A stretch of DNA of 64,000 nucleotides from Gammaproteobacteria bacterium (GTDB taxonomy: Bacteria; Pseudomonadota; Gammaproteobacteria; Natronospirales; DASSBR01), in assembly GCA_035698525.1 (NCBI GenBank), contig DASSBR010000045.1:2290-66289 (forward strand), written 5' to 3'. The translations under genes and the position numbers were made by a program. Positions 8,894-62,824 of this stretch are shown here, piece by piece. Every line of letters starts with the position of its first letter. The stretch's first letter is position 1. Below the pieces are notes generated by a model that made no database searches, was not told the DNA's origin, and saw only the letters and a list, made by a program, of their open reading frames with translations.

Positions 8894-10020
8894 TGCGTAT
8901 CGTCATGTTCTATCACTCGCTGGTGTCTGACTGGAACCATGGCAACGCGCATTTTCTCCGCGGCATCGCGACCGAACTCATAGAGCGCGGCCATAACGTG
9001 TGCGTTTACGAACCGGCGAACGGCTGGAGCCTCAGGCACCTGCGGCAGCAACGGGGCAACGCCGCGATTGCCGCCTTTCACCAGCATTACCCGCGCCTCA
9101 AGACGCATTTTTATGAGCCTGATCGTGTTGACCTTGAACGCGCGCTGGACGGTGCCGATCTCGTGCTGGTGCACGAATGGAACGATCCGGCGCTGATCGG
9201 CCGCATCGGCCAGCACCGCGCGCGGCATCGCTACCGGCTGCTGTTTCACGACACGCACCATCGCTCGGTGTCCGACGCCGCCGGCATCGCACGCTGCAAG
9301 CTCGATGACTACGACGGCGTGCTCGCCTTCGGCGAAGCCATCCGCCAGCGCTACCTCGACGCCGGTTGGGCGCGGCACGTCTGGACCTGGCACGAAGCCG
9401 CCGACACGCGCGTATTCAAGCCGCTGCCCGACGAACCACGTGAACGCGATGTGGTCTGGATCGGCAACTGGGGCGACGGCGAGCGCGACCGGGAGCTGAA
9501 CGAATTTCTGCTCCAACCGGCCGCGGCGCTGAAACTCAGCGCGACCATCCACGGCGTGCGTTATCCGCGCCCGGTGTTGCGCAAGCTCAATGCCGCCGGC
9601 TTCGACTATCGCGGCTGGCTCCCCAACTTTGACGCGCCGCGGGCCTACGCGCGCCACCGCGTGACGGTGCATGTACCGCGCCGCCCTTACGCGCGCGCCC
9701 TCCCCGGCATCCCGACGATCCGCATGTTCGAAGCGCTGGCGTGCGGCATCCCGCTGGTCTCCGCGCCGTGGCAGGACTGCGAGCATTTATTCACGCCCGG
9801 CGAGGATTACCTGGTCGCGAAGAATGGCGCTGAAATGCGCAACCATTTGCGCACGATCCTCAACGAGCCGGAACGCGCGGCAGCGCTCGCCGCCCACGGC
9901 CGCCGCACGATTCTCGCCCGCCACACCTGCGCGCACAGGGCCGATGAACTGCTGGCGCCTGTCACACCGCAGACTGAAGAAATTCCGGACGCCCTCTCCC
10001 TAAGGAAGAGGGTTGGGTGA
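8893..10020 (+). CDS. CgeB-family (Glyco_trans_1_2 / DUF3880-like) glycosyltransferase, paralog 1
   Basis: MRIVMFYHSLVSDWNHGNAHFLRGIATELIERGH N-terminus. C-terminal RMFEALACGIPLVS...GEDYLVA...ILARHTCAHRADELL is typical of the CgeB-like family. The ATG overlaps the upstream TGA. The last ~10 codons are encoded by a degenerate REP copy. Confidence 0.7.
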   Translation: MRIVMFYHSLVSDWNHGNAHFLRGIATELIERGHNVCVYEPANGWSLRHLRQQRGNAAIAAFHQHYPRLKTHFYEPDRVDLERALDGADLVLVHEWNDPALIGRIGQHRARHRYRLLFHDTHHRSVSDAAGIARCKLDDYDGVLAFGEAIRQRYLDAGWARHVWTWHEAADTRVFKPLPDEPRERDVVWIGNWGDGERDRELNEFLLQPAAALKLSATIHGVRYPRPVLRKLNAAGFDYRGWLPNFDAPRAYARHRVTVHVPRRPYARALPGIPTIRMFEALACGIPLVSAPWQDCEHLFTPGEDYLVAKNGAEMRNHLRTILNEPERAAALAAHGRRTILARHTCAHRADELLAPVTPQTEEIPDALSLRKRVG

Positions 10021-16831: not shown

Positions 16832-16858
16832 GAAGATTGTCAGAAAGTGACAATCTTC
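16832..16858. promoter_or_regulatory. Perfect 11-bp-arm palindrome containing TGTC/GACA, ~95 nt upstream of the pilA sigma-54 promoter (candidate PilR-type UAS or terminator of the lipoprotein gene)
   Basis: gaagattgtca-gaaag-tgacaatcttc. A second small palindrome, ccgcc-tgtca-ggcgg, lies at 16890-16904. Confidence 0.3.
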
Positions 16859-40132: not shown

Positions 40133-42825
40133 AGCCGCCCGTGGCACTGCTTGTATTTCAAGCCCGAGCCGCAGGGACAAGGTTCGTTTCGCCCGACTTT
40201 GCGCTCGCTGCGCACATACGTCTGAACCCGCTCCGGCTCCTGTTGCGGCTGTTCCGGATCACCGGTCGCGGTCGGCGCCTGCGCATGCTCGAACTTCATT
40301 TTCTGCTCGCGCCGGCGCTGGGCTTCCACGGCTTCAACATCTTCGCTCGCCACCCGCACCTTGCTCAGGATCGAGATCGTCTCGAACTTGATGCGGTCGA
40401 GCATGGTGGCGAACATCTCGAAGGCTTCGGTCTTATAAGCCTGCTTCGGATCGACCTGCGCATAGCCGCGCAGGTGAATGCCCTGGCGCAGATAGTCCAG
40501 CGCGCCGAGGTGTTCCTTCCAGTGCTGGTCGAGAATCTGCAGCATGATCTGCTGCTCGAACTGACGCATGACGGGTGCGCCGACAGCTTCTTCCTTCTGC
40601 CTGTAAATGGCTTCGATCTCGTTGAGGATTCGCTCGCGCAACGTCTCTTCATGCAGCGACGTATCCTCTTCGAGCCAATGTCCGATGTCGGCATTGAACT
40701 CAAACTCGCGCGCGAGCGCGTCACTCAGCCCCTTGACGTCCCACTGCTCTTCCATGCTGTTTGGCGGAACGTATTCGCTGATAACGCTGTTCACAACATC
40801 GTCGCGAATCGCCTCGATGATTCGCGACACATCCTTGGCTTGCATCAGCTCGTCGCGCTGTTCGTAAATCACCTTACGCTGGTCGTTGGCGACGTCGTCG
40901 TATTCGAGCAACTGCTTGCGGATATCGAAGTTGTGGCCTTCGACCTTGCGCTGCGCGTTTTCGATTGCCTTCGTGACCCACGGATGTTCGATCGCTTCGC
41001 CTTCCTGCATGCCGAAACGCTGCATCAGCGACTTGACCTTGTCCGACGCAAAAATGCGCATCAGGTTGTCTTCGAGCGACAGGTAAAAGCGGCTGGAGCC
41101 GGGGTCGCCCTGTCGGCCGGAACGGCCGCGAAGCTGGTTGTCGATACGGCGCGACTCGTGCCGTTCGGTGCCGATAATGTGCAGGCCGCCCGCGTCCAGC
41201 ACCTGTTGATGCCGCTTTTTCCATTCGGCGCGCACGCGTTCCTTGCCGACTTCGTCGTCGCCCACCTTGGCCAACTCGGCGTCCATGCTACCGCCGAGCA
41301 CGATGTCGGTGCCGCGGCCGGCCATGTTGGTCGCAATGGTGACCTTGCCGGGCCGGCCCGCCTCCTCGACGATCTGCGCTTCGCGCTCATGCTGCTTCGC
41401 GTTCAGCACGTCGTGCGAAACGTTTCTCTTCTTCAGCAGCCCGGACAGGTATTCCGACGTTTCGATCGACGTCGTTCCGACCAGCGCCGGCTGACCGCGT
41501 TCCTGGCAGTTACAAATGTCCTCGATGATTGCGTCGAACTTGTCCTTGGTGGACAGGTACACCTGGTCCGCCCGGTCGTCGCGAATCATGGGCTTGTTGG
41601 TCGGAATAACGACGACTTCGAGGCCGTAAATTTCCTGGAACTCGAACGCTTCGGTATCGGCCGTGCCGGTCATGCCCGAAAGCTTGTGATACATGCGGAA
41701 GTAGTTTTGGAACGTGATCGAGGCGAGCGTCTGGTTCTCCGCCTGAATCTGGACCTTTTCCTTGGCCTCGACCGCCTGGTGCAAGCCTTCGGACCAGCGG
41801 CGGCCGGGCATCGTGCGGCCGGTGAACTCGTCGACAATGACGACTTCGCCGTTATTGACGATGTAATCGACCTCGCGCTGGAACAGCGCGTGCGCGCGCA
41901 GTGCCGCGTTGACGTGATGCATCAGACTGATGTTCGAGGCATCGTACAGGCTCTCGCCGCTGGATAGCAGGCCGGCCTCGATCATCATCTTCTCAACTTT
42001 TTGATGGCCGTCCTCGGTCAGATAAACCTGCTTCTGCTTTTCGTCGACCGAATAGTCGCCCGGGCCGTCTTCCTCTTCCTGGCGCGTGAGGCGCGGAATC
42101 AGGCGATTGACCTTGACGTACAACTCGGTATTGTCGTCCACCGCGCCGGAAATGATCAGCGGTGTGCGCGCCTCGTCGATCAGAATCGAGTCCACCTCGT
42201 CGACGATCGAATAATGCAGCGCGCGTTGCACTTTGTCTTCCGGCCCGAAGGCCATGTTGTCGCGCAGGTAATCGAAGCCGAATTCGTTGTTGGTGCCATA
42301 GGTGATGTCGGCCGCGTAGGCATCGCGCTTCTCGGCCGGATCCTGCTGCGTCAGGATGACGCCGACGGTCATGTCCAGGGCCTCGTACACCGGCCTCATC
42401 CATTCGGCGTCGCGGCTGGCGAGATAGTCGTTGACAGTCACCAGATGCACGCCCTTGCCCGGCAGCGCATTCAGGTAGACCGCGAGCGTTGCCATCAGCG
42501 TCTTGCCTTCGCCGGTGCGCATTTCAGCGATCTTGCCCTGGTGTAGCACTATGCCGCCGATCAACTGCACGTCGAAGTGGCGCATGCCGAGATGGCGCTT
42601 GGACGCCTCGCGCACTGCGGCGAAGGCTTCCGGCAGCAGATCGTCGAGGCTCTCGCCGGCGGCGAGGCGCTCGCGGAATTCGACCGTTTTGGCCTTGAGC
42701 GCCGCTTCGTCCAACGCCTCGAAATCGGCCTCGAGTGCGTTAATTCGCTCGACCTGGCGGCGCATCGATCGAACGATCCGGTCGTTGCGGGTTCCAAAAA
42801 TCTTTTTGACTACGCTTGCTACCAT
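40129..42825 (-). CDS. secA: Preprotein translocase ATPase SecA
   Basis: 898 aa. MRTGEGKTL Walker [21 protein letters not shown]-terminal zinc motif [14 protein letters not shown]. Confidence 0.97.
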
Positions 42826-58281: not shown

Positions 58282-59999
58282 CAAGACGTATGCCCCAGGT
58301 GCACCACGGCAGCCGTGGTCTCGCCCGAAATGTCGTCCGGCGGCACGTCGAGAATCCGCATCGCACCGGACATGACTTCCGCGAACACCGGGGCGGCGAC
58401 CAGGCCGCCGTAATAGTCGCCCTTGCTCGGGTCGTTCATGATCACACACGCAACCAGACGCGGTTGCTCTGCCGGAATCATGCCGCAAAACACGCCGGTG
58501 TAATCGTCCGCCGAATAGCCGCCGTCGACCGCCTTGTGCGAGGTGCCGGTCTTGCCGGAAACGCGGTAGTTCGGCACTTCGGCAAGCGTGCCGGTGCCCG
58601 GATCGGTGACGACGGTTTCGAGCATCATGCGCAGGTTGTCGGCGACGTTCTCGGGCATGACGCGACGCCCGGGCGGCGGGTTCTCAAGGCGCAAAAACGA
58701 GATCGGACGCAAAATGCCGCCGGTTGCGATAGCGGCATAAGCGCGCGTGAGCTGCAGCGCGGTGACGGACACGCCGTAGCCGTATGATACTGCCGCCTGC
58801 CCCGCGCGATGCCAGTCGCGGTACGGGCGCAGCACGCCGGTGCGCTCGCCGGGAAAGCCGCTGCCGGTGTAATGTCCGAAACCGAGCGCGTGATACGTTT
58901 TCCACATGTGCTTCGGCGTCAGCGACAGCGCGATTTTGCTCGCGCCTACGTTGCTCGACTTTTCGAGCAACGTCGTCAGCGTGATAAGGCCGTAGTCGCG
59001 GTGATCACTGATCGTGTAACCGTCGACGACAATCCAGCCGGGCGTCGTATCGACCGTGCTTGCAGGCGTATAGCGATCGGTTTCGAGCGCGGCGGCAATC
59101 GTGAACGGCTTGAAGCTCGAACCGGGTTCAAACACGTCCGTCACCGCGCGGTTGCGATACAGTGCCGCATGAAAATCATTGCGGTTGTTCGGGTTGAAGG
59201 CCGGCTGGTTCGCCATCGCGATGACTTCGCCGGTGTTCGGATCGAGCACAACGATCGAACCGGACTTCGCGCCCTGCTTCTCGACTTCGGCCTTGAGATC
59301 GCGGTAGGCGAGATACTGGATTCGCAGGTCGATGCTGGTGGTGAGGTTGCGGCCCGGCTTCGGATCGCGGAGGCTCGCAACCTCCTGGATTATGTGCCCA
59401 AGCCGGTCGCGAATCACGCGTTCGGCGCCCGGCTTGCCGTGCAGCCAGTCGTTGTACGCCAGCTCCAGCCCTTCCTGGCCGATATCGTCTATGTTGGTGA
59501 AGCCGAGCACGTGCGACACCACTTCGCCGGCCGGGTAGTAACGGCGGTATTCGTGTTCGACGTGGATGCCTTCGAGGTTGAGCGCCAGCACCTTGCGCGC
59601 ATCGGCGGGGCTCATGTCGCGGTTCAGGTAAACGAACTGGCGATCGGGATGCGTCGTGACGGCCTTGCGCACCGCGGCTGCAGGGATATTGAGCGCGTTC
59701 GCCAACTCGCCAATTTGATCCGTCGCGGTGAAATCCTGCGGATTGACCCAGATCGAATCCACCGGCGTACTGACGGCGAGCGGACGGCCGTTGCGGTCGG
59801 TAATCATGCCGCGGTGCGCGGGAATTGGCACCACGCGTAAATGCCGCATCGCGCCCTGGTCGAGCAGAAACGCGTTATTGAAAATTTCCAGGCTGAACGC
59901 GCGCCACGCGAGTCCGGCCGCAACCAGCACGAAACCCGCGACGACGACCACGCCGCGCCACCCGGTGCCCGGCATCGTTGCGGTGCTCTCCCCGCTCAT
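58281..59999 (-). CDS. ftsI: Peptidoglycan D,D-transpeptidase FtsI (PBP3)
   Basis: N-terminal TM, SSFKP (SxxK), SSN, KTGT motifs. Confidence 0.93.
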   Translation of the reverse strand: MSGESTATMPGTGWRGVVVVAGFVLVAAGLAWRAFSLEIFNNAFLLDQGAMRHLRVVPIPAHRGMITDRNGRPLAVSTPVDSIWVNPQDFTATDQIGELANALNIPAAAVRKAVTTHPDRQFVYLNRDMSPADARKVLALNLEGIHVEHEYRRYYPAGEVVSHVLGFTNIDDIGQEGLELAYNDWLHGKPGAERVIRDRLGHIIQEVASLRDPKPGRNLTTSIDLRIQYLAYRDLKAEVEKQGAKSGSIVVLDPNTGEVIAMANQPAFNPNNRNDFHAALYRNRAVTDVFEPGSSFKPFTIAAALETDRYTPASTVDTTPGWIVVDGYTISDHRDYGLITLTTLLEKSSNVGASKIALSLTPKHMWKTYHALGFGHYTGSGFPGERTGVLRPYRDWHRAGQAAVSYGYGVSVTALQLTRAYAAIATGGILRPISFLRLENPPPGRRVMPENVADNLRMMLETVVTDPGTGTLAEVPNYRVSGKTGTSHKAVDGGYSADDYTGVFCGMIPAEQPRLVACVIMNDPSKGDYYGGLVAAPVFAEVMSGAMRILDVPPDDISGETTAAVVHLGHTS

Positions 60000-60265: not shown

Positions 60266-61212
60266 GCACGCTTCTCCACGACGCGCAACCGCGCGCTGCG
60301 GGCGCGCGGATTGGCCGCCAGCTCCGCCGCGCCCGGCGTCACGGCCTTCAGCGGCCGGGCAAAAACCGGCGGCACGAAATGATGCGCACCAAGTCCTCGC
60401 GGCGCGTCCGGCGCTGCCCTGGCCTTGGCGCGCATGAAGCGCTTGACGATGCGATCCTCGAGAGAATGAAACGTAATGACGCACAACCGCCCGCCGCCTG
60501 CCAGCACGCGCGGCGTCTGCTCGAGCACATCGCGCAACTCGTCCAGTTCGCGATTAATGAAAATCCGGATAGCCTGAAACGCCCGCGTGGCGGGATGCTT
60601 GTTGCGTTCGCGCGTCGGTACGGCGCGGGCGACCAGCGCGGCCAGTTCAGCAGTGTCTTCGATGGGCTTTTCGAGCCGCGTCTGGCAGACGGCGCGGGCA
60701 ATGCGGCGAGCAAAACGCTCCTCGCCGTAGTCACGAATGACTTCGGTGATTTCATCTTCCGGCGCGCGCGCGAGCCATTCGGCGGCGGATTCGCCGGTGG
60801 AGGGATCCATCCGCATGTCGAGCGGACCGGCGGCGCGGAAGCTGAAGCCGCGGGCGGAGTCGTCGAACTGCGGCGACGAGACACCAAGGTCGAGCAGAAT
60901 ACCGTCGACCTGTCCCGCCACGCCCATGTTCCCTGCCATCCGCTCGAGCATCGTGAATGCTCCGTGAAACGCCGTCACGCGTTGATCCTGTTCAGCCAGT
61001 TGCCGGGCGGCGATCAGCGCCTCCGGATCCTTGTCGATAACCAGCAAACGCCCGTTCGCCCCGAGTTGCGCCAGAATGGCGCGACTATGGCCGCCGCGAC
61101 CGAAGGTGCCATCGACATAGACACCGTCGGAACGGATTTGAAGCGCGGCGACAGACTCGTCAAGCAGGACCGGCGCATGTTCCCCTGGTTGGTCATGCCG
61201 CCGCTCATTCAA
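60262..61212 (-). CDS. rsmH: 16S rRNA (cytosine1402-N4)-methyltransferase
   Basis: [45 protein letters not shown]. Confidence 0.95.
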
Positions 61213-61661
61213 AGCGACAACCGGGCCAGTTCTTCCGGCAGCGACTCATCCTCGTCGGCTTCGTCAATCCAGACGTCGCGGCGTTCGGTCCACGTGTCTT
61301 CGTCCCACAGCTCAAACTTGTTGCCCTGTCCGATCAGCACCACGCGGCGATCGAGCGACGCGAATTCGCGCAGCGGCGCGGGCAGCAGCACCCGGCCATG
61401 GCTGTCGAGTTCGAGATCCGTCGCGTGACCCATCAACAGGCGCTGCAGTCGCCGCGACTGTTTATTCAGGCCCGATAATCTGACAAGCTTTTGCTCGAGT
61501 TCTTCCCAATCCGGCAGGGGGTAAAGCAACAGGCAGCGGTCGTAGTCGACGGTGATGACCATTTGGCCCGCGCAGCGTTGGGCAAGACCATCCCGATAGC
61601 GAGTCGGAATCGCCAGTCGCCCTTTGGCATCCAATGCCAGGGTATTGACGCCGCGCAACAT
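61209..61661 (-). CDS. mraZ: Transcriptional regulator MraZ
   Basis: [23 protein letters not shown] and a second SpoVT-AbrB-like repeat [15 protein letters not shown]. Confidence 0.95.
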
Positions 61662-61670
61662 TTTGACTTA

Positions 61671-61734
61671 CTCCACCACTGCCCACTTTTTCCCACCTGG
61701 CGACACTATAGGGAGCGGATGCCGGGGCTGTCAA
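61671..61734 (-). promoter_or_regulatory. mraZ/dcw promoter (TTGACA-N18-TATAGT) with three MraZ-box direct repeats
   Basis: On the minus strand: TTGACA (61734-61729), TATAGT (61710-61705), then TGGGA (61695-61691), TGGGC (61685-61681) and TGGAG (61675-61671) at exactly 10-nt spacing. This matches the known TGGGN-N5 repeat operator of MraZ. Confidence 0.65.
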
Positions 61735-61877
61735 GGGATTTTGCTTGCGGGTTTTCCTTAATTTTGCTTTTGGGTCAGGGACTTACGTGGGGTGGGATGG
61801 TATTGGTTGTGGGTTCTGGTTGGAAATCAGGGGGTTGTGGGTTTTAATTGTTAGTTTACCTTAGCTATAGGGTTTTG

Positions 61878-62149
61878 TTCCGCCTGCGGCGGAATTGATT
61901 GGGTGCCGGTCTCGGCCGGCGGCCGAGTTACTTTCCTTTCGGGGAAAGTAACCAAAGCCACTGCTCCTAACGCTTGGTCCAAAGTGCATCCTGCACTTTG
62001 GACTTCCCGAAGATCGGGCGAAAAAACGGGGCCGGAACCAAACTCCGGCATCCCTGCCCTCAAACATGGTTCCTTGTTTCCCCGCTTTTTCGCCCGATCT
62101 TCGGCTGCGCTCCATGTCGCGGGAGAAGAAGCCGGCCGTCGTGGCCGGC
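61878..62149. other. Array of six consecutive perfect or near-perfect stem-loops (candidate structured RNA or nested palindromic elements)
   Basis: Hairpins: 61878-61894 (ttccgcc/ggcggaa), 61911-61927 (ctcggcc/ggccgag), 61927-61952 (gttactttcc/ggaaagtaac), 61977-62003 (gtccaaagtgca/tgcactttggac), 62007-62104 (~24-bp arms ccgaagatcgggcgaaaaa.cgggg with the inner pair ggaacca/tggttcc), and 62131-62149 (gccggcc/ggccggc). Confidence 0.5.
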
Positions 62150-62195
62150 AAGAATGGAAAAGAAATTTATCCGCTCATCCTGCCTTCATCTTGCT

Positions 62196-62230
62196 CCCCT
62201 CTCCCTTCGGGAGAGGGGCTGGGGTGAGGG
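62196..62230 (+). repeat. REP-like hairpin element
   Basis: cccctctcccttcgggagaggggctggggtgaggg, the best copy of the family, 19 nt downstream of the maf stop. Confidence 0.7.
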
Positions 62231-62248
62231 TGCCCCAATGCGAACGGG

Positions 62249-62824
62249 TCAAAAAGCACGCAAACCATAATTGGCCAACAACTCCGCCGTCTCGCACAAT
62301 GGCAAACCCACCACCCCCGAATAACTCCCATCGAGCTGCGCGACAAAAATCGCCGCCCGTCCCTGAATTGCATAGGCACCAGCCTTGTCGTCGCCCTCCC
62401 CGGCTCGCAGATAGGCATCAATTTCGTCGGCGCCAATGTCACGAAAAACGACCCGGCTCCGGCTCAACGCACTTTGCGTGCGGGCGCCGTCGGTTACCGC
62501 AACCGCAGTCAAAACGTCATGCGCCCGCCCCGCCAGCCGTGTGAGCATGTTCCGCGCTGCTGCGCGATTCACCGGCTTGCCGAGTATGTCACCGTCGACG
62601 ACGACAGTGGTGTCCGCGCCCAGCACAACCGTATCGGCGCGATTGACGGCAATCGCGCCCGCTTCGGCTTTCGCACGCGCCAGCCGGATGACGTAATCTT
62701 CGGGCGCTTCATCCGCGCGACGGCTTTCGTCGACATCCACCGCCAGTCGCTCGTGCGCCAGATCGATCTGGCACAGCAACTCATGTCGTCGTGGCGATTG
62801 CGAGGCGAGATACAGCTTAGGCAC
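62249..62824 (-). CDS. maf: Maf-like nucleoside triphosphate pyrophosphatase
   Basis: LYLASQSPRRHELL, VLGADTVVVVDGDILGKP, GAYAIQG. Confidence 0.85.
   Translation of the reverse strand: MPKLYLASQSPRRHELLCQIDLAHERLAVDVDESRRADEAPEDYVIRLARAKAEAGAIAVNRADTVVLGADTTVVVDGDILGKPVNRAAARNMLTRLAGRAHDVLTAVAVTDGARTQSALSRSRVVFRDIGADEIDAYLRAGEGDDKAGAYAIQGRAAIFVAQLDGSYSGVVGLPLCETAELLANYGLRAF

Follow-up and report, generated by a model that had tools for sequence, protein, structure and literature searches.

A conserved hairpin array upstream of mraZ in uncultured gammaproteobacteria, probably a lineage-specific structured RNA

In the 64,000-nt stretch of contig DASSBR010000045.1 (assembly GCA_035698525.1, an uncultured gammaproteobacterium) that was analyzed here as a whole, and which is hereafter called the window, a dense array of six hairpins occupies positions 61878-62149, between maf and mraZ, the first gene of the division and cell wall (dcw) cluster. 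It probably represents a new structured RNA specific to this lineage; its general kind, an intergenic structured RNA or terminator-region element, is known, and it belongs to no known family. Selection has most likely acted on the folding of the block as a single strand with gene-sense (minus) polarity, and most likely as RNA. As for its role, we tentatively favor a cis-acting RNA module that closes the upstream transcription unit and insulates the dcw promoter. The parts of the array, in gene-sense order, are given below; L002, L162 and L163 are homologous loci of the related metagenome-assembled genomes (MAGs) DASSJY01, GCA_035701285.1 and GCA_035698405.1, respectively, the last two representing one lineage with the same MraZ protein.

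62124..62149, minus strand: hp1, a 7-bp G+C stem GCCGGCC-ACGAC-GGCCGGC (62149..62131) with UUCUUCU (62130..62124), terminator-like, at the 5' edge of the conserved block.
62105..62123, minus strand: conserved single-stranded linker of 19 nt, sense CCCGCGACAUGGAGCGCAG, 81-89% identical among the three lineages, far above neutral.
62007..62104, minus strand: long hairpin of 98 nt, with a 25-bp closing stem, an inner 7-bp stem and a short apical stem with the hexaloop AGGGAU (62047-62058, sense).
61977..62003, minus strand: P3, a perfect 12-bp stem with the sense apex CAGGAUG (CsrB-type motif).
61963..61973, minus strand: P3a, a small 4-bp hairpin, imperfectly paired in the window; L002 (GCGA/UCGC) and L162 (GCUC/GAGC) have perfect, covarying versions.
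61926..61953, minus strand: P4, a 10-bp stem (11 bp counting a G.U pair) with the loop CCGAAA and a possible outer extension with conserved U.G pairs.
61905..61927, minus strand: hp5, two competing stems, CUCGGCC-GCC-GGCCGAG (61911-61927) and GCCGG-loop-CCGGC (61905-61920).
61878..61894, minus strand: hp6, a 7-bp stem UUCCGCC-GCA-GGCGGAA, at the 3' end of the block.

All stems listed in a first-pass annotation of the sequence (7, 7 and 10 bp, 12 bp with a 3-nt loop, the long hairpin and a last one of 7 bp) were found where it had placed them. The near-perfect nature it ascribed to the long hairpin also held, since the 25-nt arms (62007-62031 and 62080-62104) are 96% complementary and surround ggaacca/tggttcc (62034-62040 and 62067-62073). 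Its statement that no stem is followed by a U-run needed correction, as hp1 carries its U-rich tail on the minus (gene) strand and was scored terminator-like, while the other five hairpins have no U-run. The stretch 61878-62149 shows the highest perfect-hairpin coverage of any 272-nt stretch in the window (0.386, the next reaching 0.283), and this value is also above the maxima upstream of mraZ in 133 other loci, which have a median of 0.085. Folding of 61870-62230 resulted in z-scores of -9.1 for the minus and -9.3 for the plus strand, none of 100 shuffled sequences being equally stable. The possibility that other lineages carry hairpin arrays of unrelated sequence before mraZ was considered and rejected; those loci consist of rnpB and a single strong terminator.

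When the loci of the closest relatives (75-83% MraZ identity) were compared, a homologue of 62154..61870, roughly 290 bases, was found in at least four more related MAG lineages of uncultured soil gammaproteobacteria, where it directly precedes the mraZ regulatory region that they share with the window. It is present at full length in L002, L162 and L163, and as the 3' part only in L183 and L185, the contigs of which start inside the array. The four full-length sequences (window, L002, L162 and L163) were scored against a consensus of eight local helices. In total, 97.5% of the cells pair. Both partners have changed in 13 pairs, a number reached by 0 of 500 shuffles (3.9 +/- 1.6 such pairs); sliding of the partners leaves 0-1, and RNAalifold agrees with this scoring. 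The stem of P4 persists in L002 through four compensated pairs (GGUUACUUUCC changed to GCCUACUUUUG, with matching partners), although P4 there is only 68% identical to that of the window; its central 6 bp (TACTTT/AAAGTA) are invariant, while outer and inner positions vary. In the closing stem of the long hairpin, which is 99% paired across the four homologues, 22 of the 25 pairs are invariant and two are changed on both sides, with C-G/G.U becoming G-C/U-A at the top. The inner and apical stems of this hairpin, P3a (helix 6, two of four pairs changed on both sides) and hp6 covary as well. At hp6, L002, L162, L183 and L185 all retain a hairpin in which pairs have changed (GCCGCC/GGCGGC, GUCGCC/GGCGAC), and hp5 of L185 has GGGGG/CCCCC where the others have CCGGG/CCCGG. 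Of the two competing hp5 stems, the alternative one (61905-61920) is the better conserved in relatives. The proposal of the first-pass annotation to look for covariation in orthologous maf-mraZ intergenic regions was thereby borne out, with the block conserved and compensatory changes present.

The wobble pairs of the array are distributed unevenly between the strands. In helices 1-7, G.U or U.G cells occur on the gene-sense strand at 11 pairs, which we read as about seven separate changes, and there are zero A.C or C.A cells, i.e., the would-be wobbles on the other strand. This bias favors a single-stranded sense form, most simply RNA. The long hairpin has a G.U on the sense strand only. One P3 pair is G-C in the window and L002, G.U in L162 and A-U in L163, and a U.G pair is also seen in L162 and L163. 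The arrays of these two loci differ at only three positions, all of them in stems; L163 is perfectly paired and L162 has one U.U and two G.U, differences that could represent population variation or consensus error.

Sequence conservation was assessed as the identity of the window to L002 and L162, given in this order where two values are separated by a slash. Fourfold-degenerate sites of mraZ and rsmH are 59-60% / 65-67% identical, coding DNA 78-81%, the spacer from the array to the -35 element 56% / 61%, and the promoter with its MraZ boxes 76% / 87%. The array overall reaches 84% / 87%, with 92-94% for hp1, 92% for the closing stem of the long hairpin, 91-97% for P3 and about 78% for the apex of the long hairpin. 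Past P4, the 3' part (hp5 and hp6) falls to 52-60% (52-71% when given for the 3' third). The segment from hp1 to P3, at 92-97%, is more conserved than the mraZ promoter and operator (76% against L002), and judging from these alignments the 5' two-thirds of the array appear to be under strong purifying constraint. The tetranucleotide GATC is found in both arms of the long hairpin (62012-62015 and 62096-62099) and is invariant in all homologues.

The gene order on the minus strand is nadD, rsfS, rlmH, maf (62249-62824), a 587-nt spacer (62248..61662), mraZ (61209-61661), rsmH, ftsL and ftsI. Between maf and mraZ lie, in this order, a repetitive extragenic palindromic (REP) copy, the hairpin array, a C-rich tract and the mraZ promoter. 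The features outside the array are the following.

62196..62232, strand unspecified: REP copy CCCCTCTCCC-N3-GGGAGAGGGG + CTGGGGTGAGGG, outside the array, between maf and the array.
61735..61866, minus (sense) strand: C-rich, G-poor, unstructured rut-like (Rho utilization) tract between the array and the mraZ promoter.
61734..61705, minus strand: mraZ promoter TTGACA-N18-TATAGT, near-consensus.
61698..61672, minus strand: direct repeats GTGGG-N5-GTGGG-N5-GTGGA, directly downstream of the mraZ promoter.
L002 2112-2487, L162 2062-2445, L172 2373-2750 and L188 2296-2654: rnpB directly upstream of the mraZ or array locus.

The GTGGG/GTGGA repeats are presumably MraZ boxes, given the established knowledge of the E. 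coli Pmra. Promoter and repeats are kept in nearly all of the approximately 190 loci fetched, across many gammaproteobacterial lineages. The upstream neighbor varies. In L002 and L162 it is rnpB, not maf, and the array starts 20-50 nt past the rnpB 3' end. In the window genome the nadD-rsfS-rlmH-maf operon adjoins the array in place of rnpB, and the synteny break falls exactly at the 5' edge of the array. Since the neighbor varies between maf and rnpB, the block travels with mraZ rather than with maf. RNase P RNA was our first guess for the array, as rnpB lies upstream of mraZ in many gammaproteobacteria, and it was rejected because the Rfam scan at gathering thresholds found no rnpB in the 64-kb window.

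The hp1 stem-loop is the same in L002 and L162, where rnpB precedes it, and with its tail in L002 (UUCUUUU) it is terminator-like there too. In the window and in L002, hp1 is the only hairpin with the make-up of an intrinsic terminator, i.e., a G+C-rich stem-loop with a U-run directly after it. It also resembles the rnpB terminator of L172, a relative without the array, which reads CGGCC-GCGAT-GGCCG+CAUUUUUU. On neither strand was a conserved sigma-70 promoter found within the block or just before it, so that transcription, if any, most likely comes from upstream.

Several close relatives have no array. In L172, L188 and L194, rnpB and one terminator are followed by mraZ; L186 and L187 have maf, a 227-nt spacer and mraZ (the same maf-mraZ adjacency as the window), and L193 has an AraC-family gene, a 293-nt spacer and mraZ. 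In a neighbor-joining tree of concatenated MraZ, RsmH, FtsL and FtsI the carriers group together with weak support, L186 being nested among them. Trees of this kind were used only to conclude that the carriers belong together and that the array was probably lost at least once (in L186). The simplest history is a single gain with occasional later loss, and the array appears to be single-locus, lineage-specific and vertically inherited. A recent transfer of the whole block is unlikely, because its 3' third has diverged to a near-neutral level. A MraZ-anchored scan of Joint Genome Institute (JGI) metagenomes gave no array, and the MraZ identity of the nearest relatives was 68-77%. Logan short-read contigs from several samples (L164-L171 and L183-L185) all start within the array, in P4 or hp5. 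Assemblies are broken there by the palindromes or by strain variation, and the array may therefore be hidden in other data sets.

From the structure, conservation, covariation, strand bias, position and composition observed, we infer the transcription, cleavage, termination and insulating role of the block as follows. RNA would be made by transcription from the upstream gene, maf in the window and rnpB in the relatives, and hp1 with its U-rich tail would stop most of it. The read-through RNA would fold into very stable hairpins. The 25-bp closing stem has the length of an RNase III substrate (about two turns, at least 20 bp of continuous double-stranded RNA); going by the modeled structure, it could be such a substrate, and cleavage there would sever the upstream RNA from the downstream part, while the remaining stems would block 3' exonucleases. 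The tract 61866..61735, approximately 130 nt with C at 36-40% and G at 5-12% on the sense strand, may offer a loading site for Rho, as its composition corresponds to that of rut sites (at least 80 nt, C-rich, G-poor and weakly structured). The skew of this tract is stronger in array-bearing than in array-less relatives. The net outcome would be that upstream transcription is kept out of the MraZ-controlled dcw promoter.

Further motifs were seen in the C-rich tract. It contains AACCCACAACC twice. An IHF-like consensus, WATCAR-N4-TTG, is located at 61824-61837 (plus strand aaatcagggggttg), approximately 90 nt upstream of the mraZ -35 element, and its sense form CAAC-N4-(C/A)TGATTT is invariant in all close relatives, array-less ones included. 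The motif acttacg (plus strand; sense CGTAAGTnnCTG) at 61782-61788, approximately 50 nt upstream of the -35 element, is invariant in every close relative; it is like one half of a GacA box, the second half of which is absent.

A number of observations weigh against an insulating RNA. The array is dispensable, as L172, L186/L187, L188, L193 and L194 do without it. Conservation is as high in loops and linkers as it is in stems (0.80-0.87 at unpaired and 0.84-0.90 at paired positions), and the near-invariance of arms, loops and linkers is not explained by insulation; it rather suggests a sequence-specific protein or nucleic-acid partner. Transcription through hp1 is an assumption. The covariation statistics come from four full-length sequences of three lineages and hence from few independent events. 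Finally, the strand bias is no proof of RNA, as single-stranded DNA hairpins would tolerate the G.T wobble too.

The comparison with known families supports the assignment of the array to none of them. Rfam 15 gave no match at gathering thresholds anywhere in the window, with RNase P, 6S, CsrB/RsmZ and sX4 among the families searched; the Rfam scan that the first-pass annotation had proposed thus gave no known family. At E-values up to 10, only sub-threshold hairpin look-alikes were obtained for 61400-62500 (mir-3926 with 34 bits against a threshold of 82, sX4 with 18 against 70 and ROSE_3 with 19 against 43). No tRNA or tmRNA was found in the window. A protein-coding role was rejected, given that 1-nt indels among the window, L002 and L162 shift every frame.

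Among described systems, the nearest include palindromic repeats and tandem terminators. REP, BIME and REPIN elements likewise occupy intergenic sites at operon 3' ends and form stable palindromic hairpins, and the 98-nt hairpin, with two inverted arms of approximately 25 nt and a variable spacer, is REPIN-like. REP arrays can stabilize upstream mRNA and attenuate read-through, and REP and REPIN families comprise tens to hundreds of copies of one unit. In contrast, the six hairpins of the array all differ, and none of them recurs in the window or in the related loci. The window has a REP family of its own, CCCTCTCCC-N3-GGGAGAGGG, often followed by GGGTGAGGG, with approximately six copies at 9992, 11091, 11186, 42872, 45419 and 62197. 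The REP element reported at 62196 does exist, with a REP-type 10-bp stem at 62196-62218; the homologous blocks of L002 and L162 have no such copy. It was also rightly noted earlier that the array does not resemble this family, as the sequences differ and the array modules occur once in the window. Other isolated perfect hairpins with 10-11-bp stems were found at 16832-16858, 24821-24843, 40801-40828 and 58948-58973, one of them within the ftsI frame.

Correia or NEMIS elements of Neisseria are miniature inverted-repeat transposable elements (MITEs) of approximately 100-150 bp with inverted ends of approximately 25 nt; their hairpin transcripts are cleaved by RNase III and they affect the expression of neighboring genes. 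They are multi-copy and flanked by a TA duplication. The 98-nt hairpin is similar to them in size and in its inverted ends, but it is single-copy in the window and related loci, has no flanking duplication, and five other hairpins accompany it in a fixed series. Downstream of E. coli rnpB there are reportedly multiple terminator-like repeats, a description attributed to Reed and Altman in 1983. As with these repeats and with tandem terminators of stable RNAs, the block directly follows rnpB in the relatives and opens with a terminator-like hairpin. Unlike them, it shows no sequence kinship, its hairpins are not one repeated unit, only hp1 is U-tailed, and in the window rnpB is gone while the block stays.

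Two of the three options that the first-pass annotation had offered, a structured non-coding RNA and an insulator or processing region, fit the conserved position, the compensatory changes, the sense-strand wobbles, the terminator-like hp1 and the C-rich tract. The third, a nested MITE or palindromic insertion, was not supported, as no second copy was seen in the window, related loci, viral contigs or plasmids. Stated in full, this alternative holds that the array is a relic or domesticated mobile palindromic insertion (MITE, REPIN or PATE-like) in the U-tract of an ancestral rnpB terminator, the hairpins being kept perfect by palindrome correction at the DNA level and not by a function as RNA, and we consider it unlikely. 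It draws on the REPIN- or small-MITE-like form of the 98-nt hairpin, with its conserved 25-nt inverted arms and more variable interior, and on stems that are unusually perfect for RNA. In addition, the segment of approximately 250 nt past hp1 is flanked in L162 by a direct repeat TTCTTCT, which is partly kept or degenerate in L002 and degenerate in the window, and empty sites in L186, L192 and L193 read TTCTT(CTT)-AAGG. Presence and absence are patchy within the clade, and the same repeat would also permit precise deletion, explaining the losses. However, TTCTTCT is a low-complexity U-tract and may be a coincidence, the segment of approximately 250 nt has no terminal inverted repeats, and no target duplication surrounds the 98-nt hairpin (GCGCAG|CCGAAG...CTTCGG|GAAGTC). 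Every carrier has the six hairpins at one and the same site and in one order. Stems are kept in the 3' third at 52-71% identity, and strand-biased wobble intermediates are not expected from a symmetric correction at the DNA level.

The search for further copies argues in the same direction, in view of the approximately six copies that a true REP family has in the same window. No second copy of any module was found in the 64-kb window by pattern search with up to three mismatches, blastn-short, an nhmmer profile or the covariance model R1, nor in about 830-890 kb of related loci by pattern, blastn, nhmmer profile or covariance model. Profile and covariance-model searches of 194 loci and the window matched only the training sequences and truncated contigs. 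The arm pattern had no match in viral contigs, the exact pattern of the P3 palindrome had none in metagenome contigs, and against plasmids the array gave only a 39-nt chance match. The exact arm pattern was also without a match in genome contigs, a result which says little as this pattern would have missed the variant arm of L002. Two translated frames of the array had no relative among 5.8 billion proteins, a weak negative for further copies.

It is less likely again that the array acts in trans or sequesters a protein as a small RNA, such as a lineage-specific RNA that binds CsrA/RsmA through its GGA apices and might couple CsrA to Rho-dependent termination before the dcw promoter. The sense apices CAGGAUG / CAGGGAUG (P3) and CAGGGAUG / CAUGGACG / CAGGGACG (long hairpin) are present in all homologues, the apical loop of the long hairpin being ANGGAN in four out of four, and the stem under this motif covaries. 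Read from the sequences, the hp5 loop holds GGA in three of five lineages. Across both strands of the whole window, only four hairpins with stems of 4 bp or more carry CA(N)GGA(Y)G at the apex, and two of these belong to the array. Both the CsrB repeat CAGGA(U/A/C)G and the SELEX consensus RUACARGGAUGU are found in hairpin loops (PMC7652899), and the array apices match them. Highly conserved loops and linkers would suit a protein-binding RNA, and a precedent for control of Rho access by CsrA is reported (PMC4052769).

On the other hand, the motif was noticed post hoc, and the multi-hairpin form and CAGGAUG-type apices that the array shares with the sponge RNAs CsrB, CsrC and RsmX/Y/Z go along with clear differences. 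There are only two or three GGA loops, against many in the sponges, on very long stems, and the 12-bp stem of P3 is far more stable than typical CsrA sites (PMC7652899). Counted in total, GGA shows no clear excess on the sense strand (6-11, against 5-6 antisense). No GacA/UvrY box (TGTAAG-N6-CTTACA) was found near the array, the seven matches in the window lying elsewhere at chance level. The array lacks a promoter and a U-tract terminator of its own, and no Csr/Rsm family of Rfam matched it even at E-values up to 10. A fuller version of this proposal is less probable still, namely that the array is a so far undescribed riboregulator or gene for a non-coding RNA in an uncultured family of soil gammaproteobacteria, bound sequence-specifically by a protein (CsrA/RsmA being the candidate, via the two CAGGAUG-type loops) and gating Rho-dependent termination before the MraZ-controlled dcw promoter. 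If true, transcription of the dcw cluster would be tied to a global regulator that acts post-transcriptionally.

Very unlikely, finally, is a regulatory region of the dcw promoter acting at the DNA level, with palindromes as protein-binding or cruciform sites brought to Pmra by an IHF-like bend: stem and loop sequences alike are highly conserved, the central 6 bp of P4 and a WATCAR-N4-TTG motif between block and promoter are invariant, and the block always lies in the same distance class upstream of mraZ, but changed positions stay strictly complementary (four of four in P4), which a duplex operator does not need, the strand-biased wobbles imply a single-stranded form, 25-bp arms 48 bp apart are unlike any operator, and the IHF-like site and promoter are equally conserved in relatives without the block.

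The array, for which we tentatively favor a cis-acting, insulating RNA module, is limited in reach: it is known from a handful of uncultured MAG lineages, close relatives do without it, and its function is inferred. If the array is a functional RNA, it would constitute a new structured-RNA family with no counterpart in Rfam, placed strategically where a stable-RNA or housekeeping operon gives way to the dcw promoter. The array also illustrates that a dense cluster of palindromes need not be REP or MITE debris. The constraint on the array sequence exceeds that on the MraZ operator, which implies a specific partner and a real contribution to fitness in the lineages that carry it.

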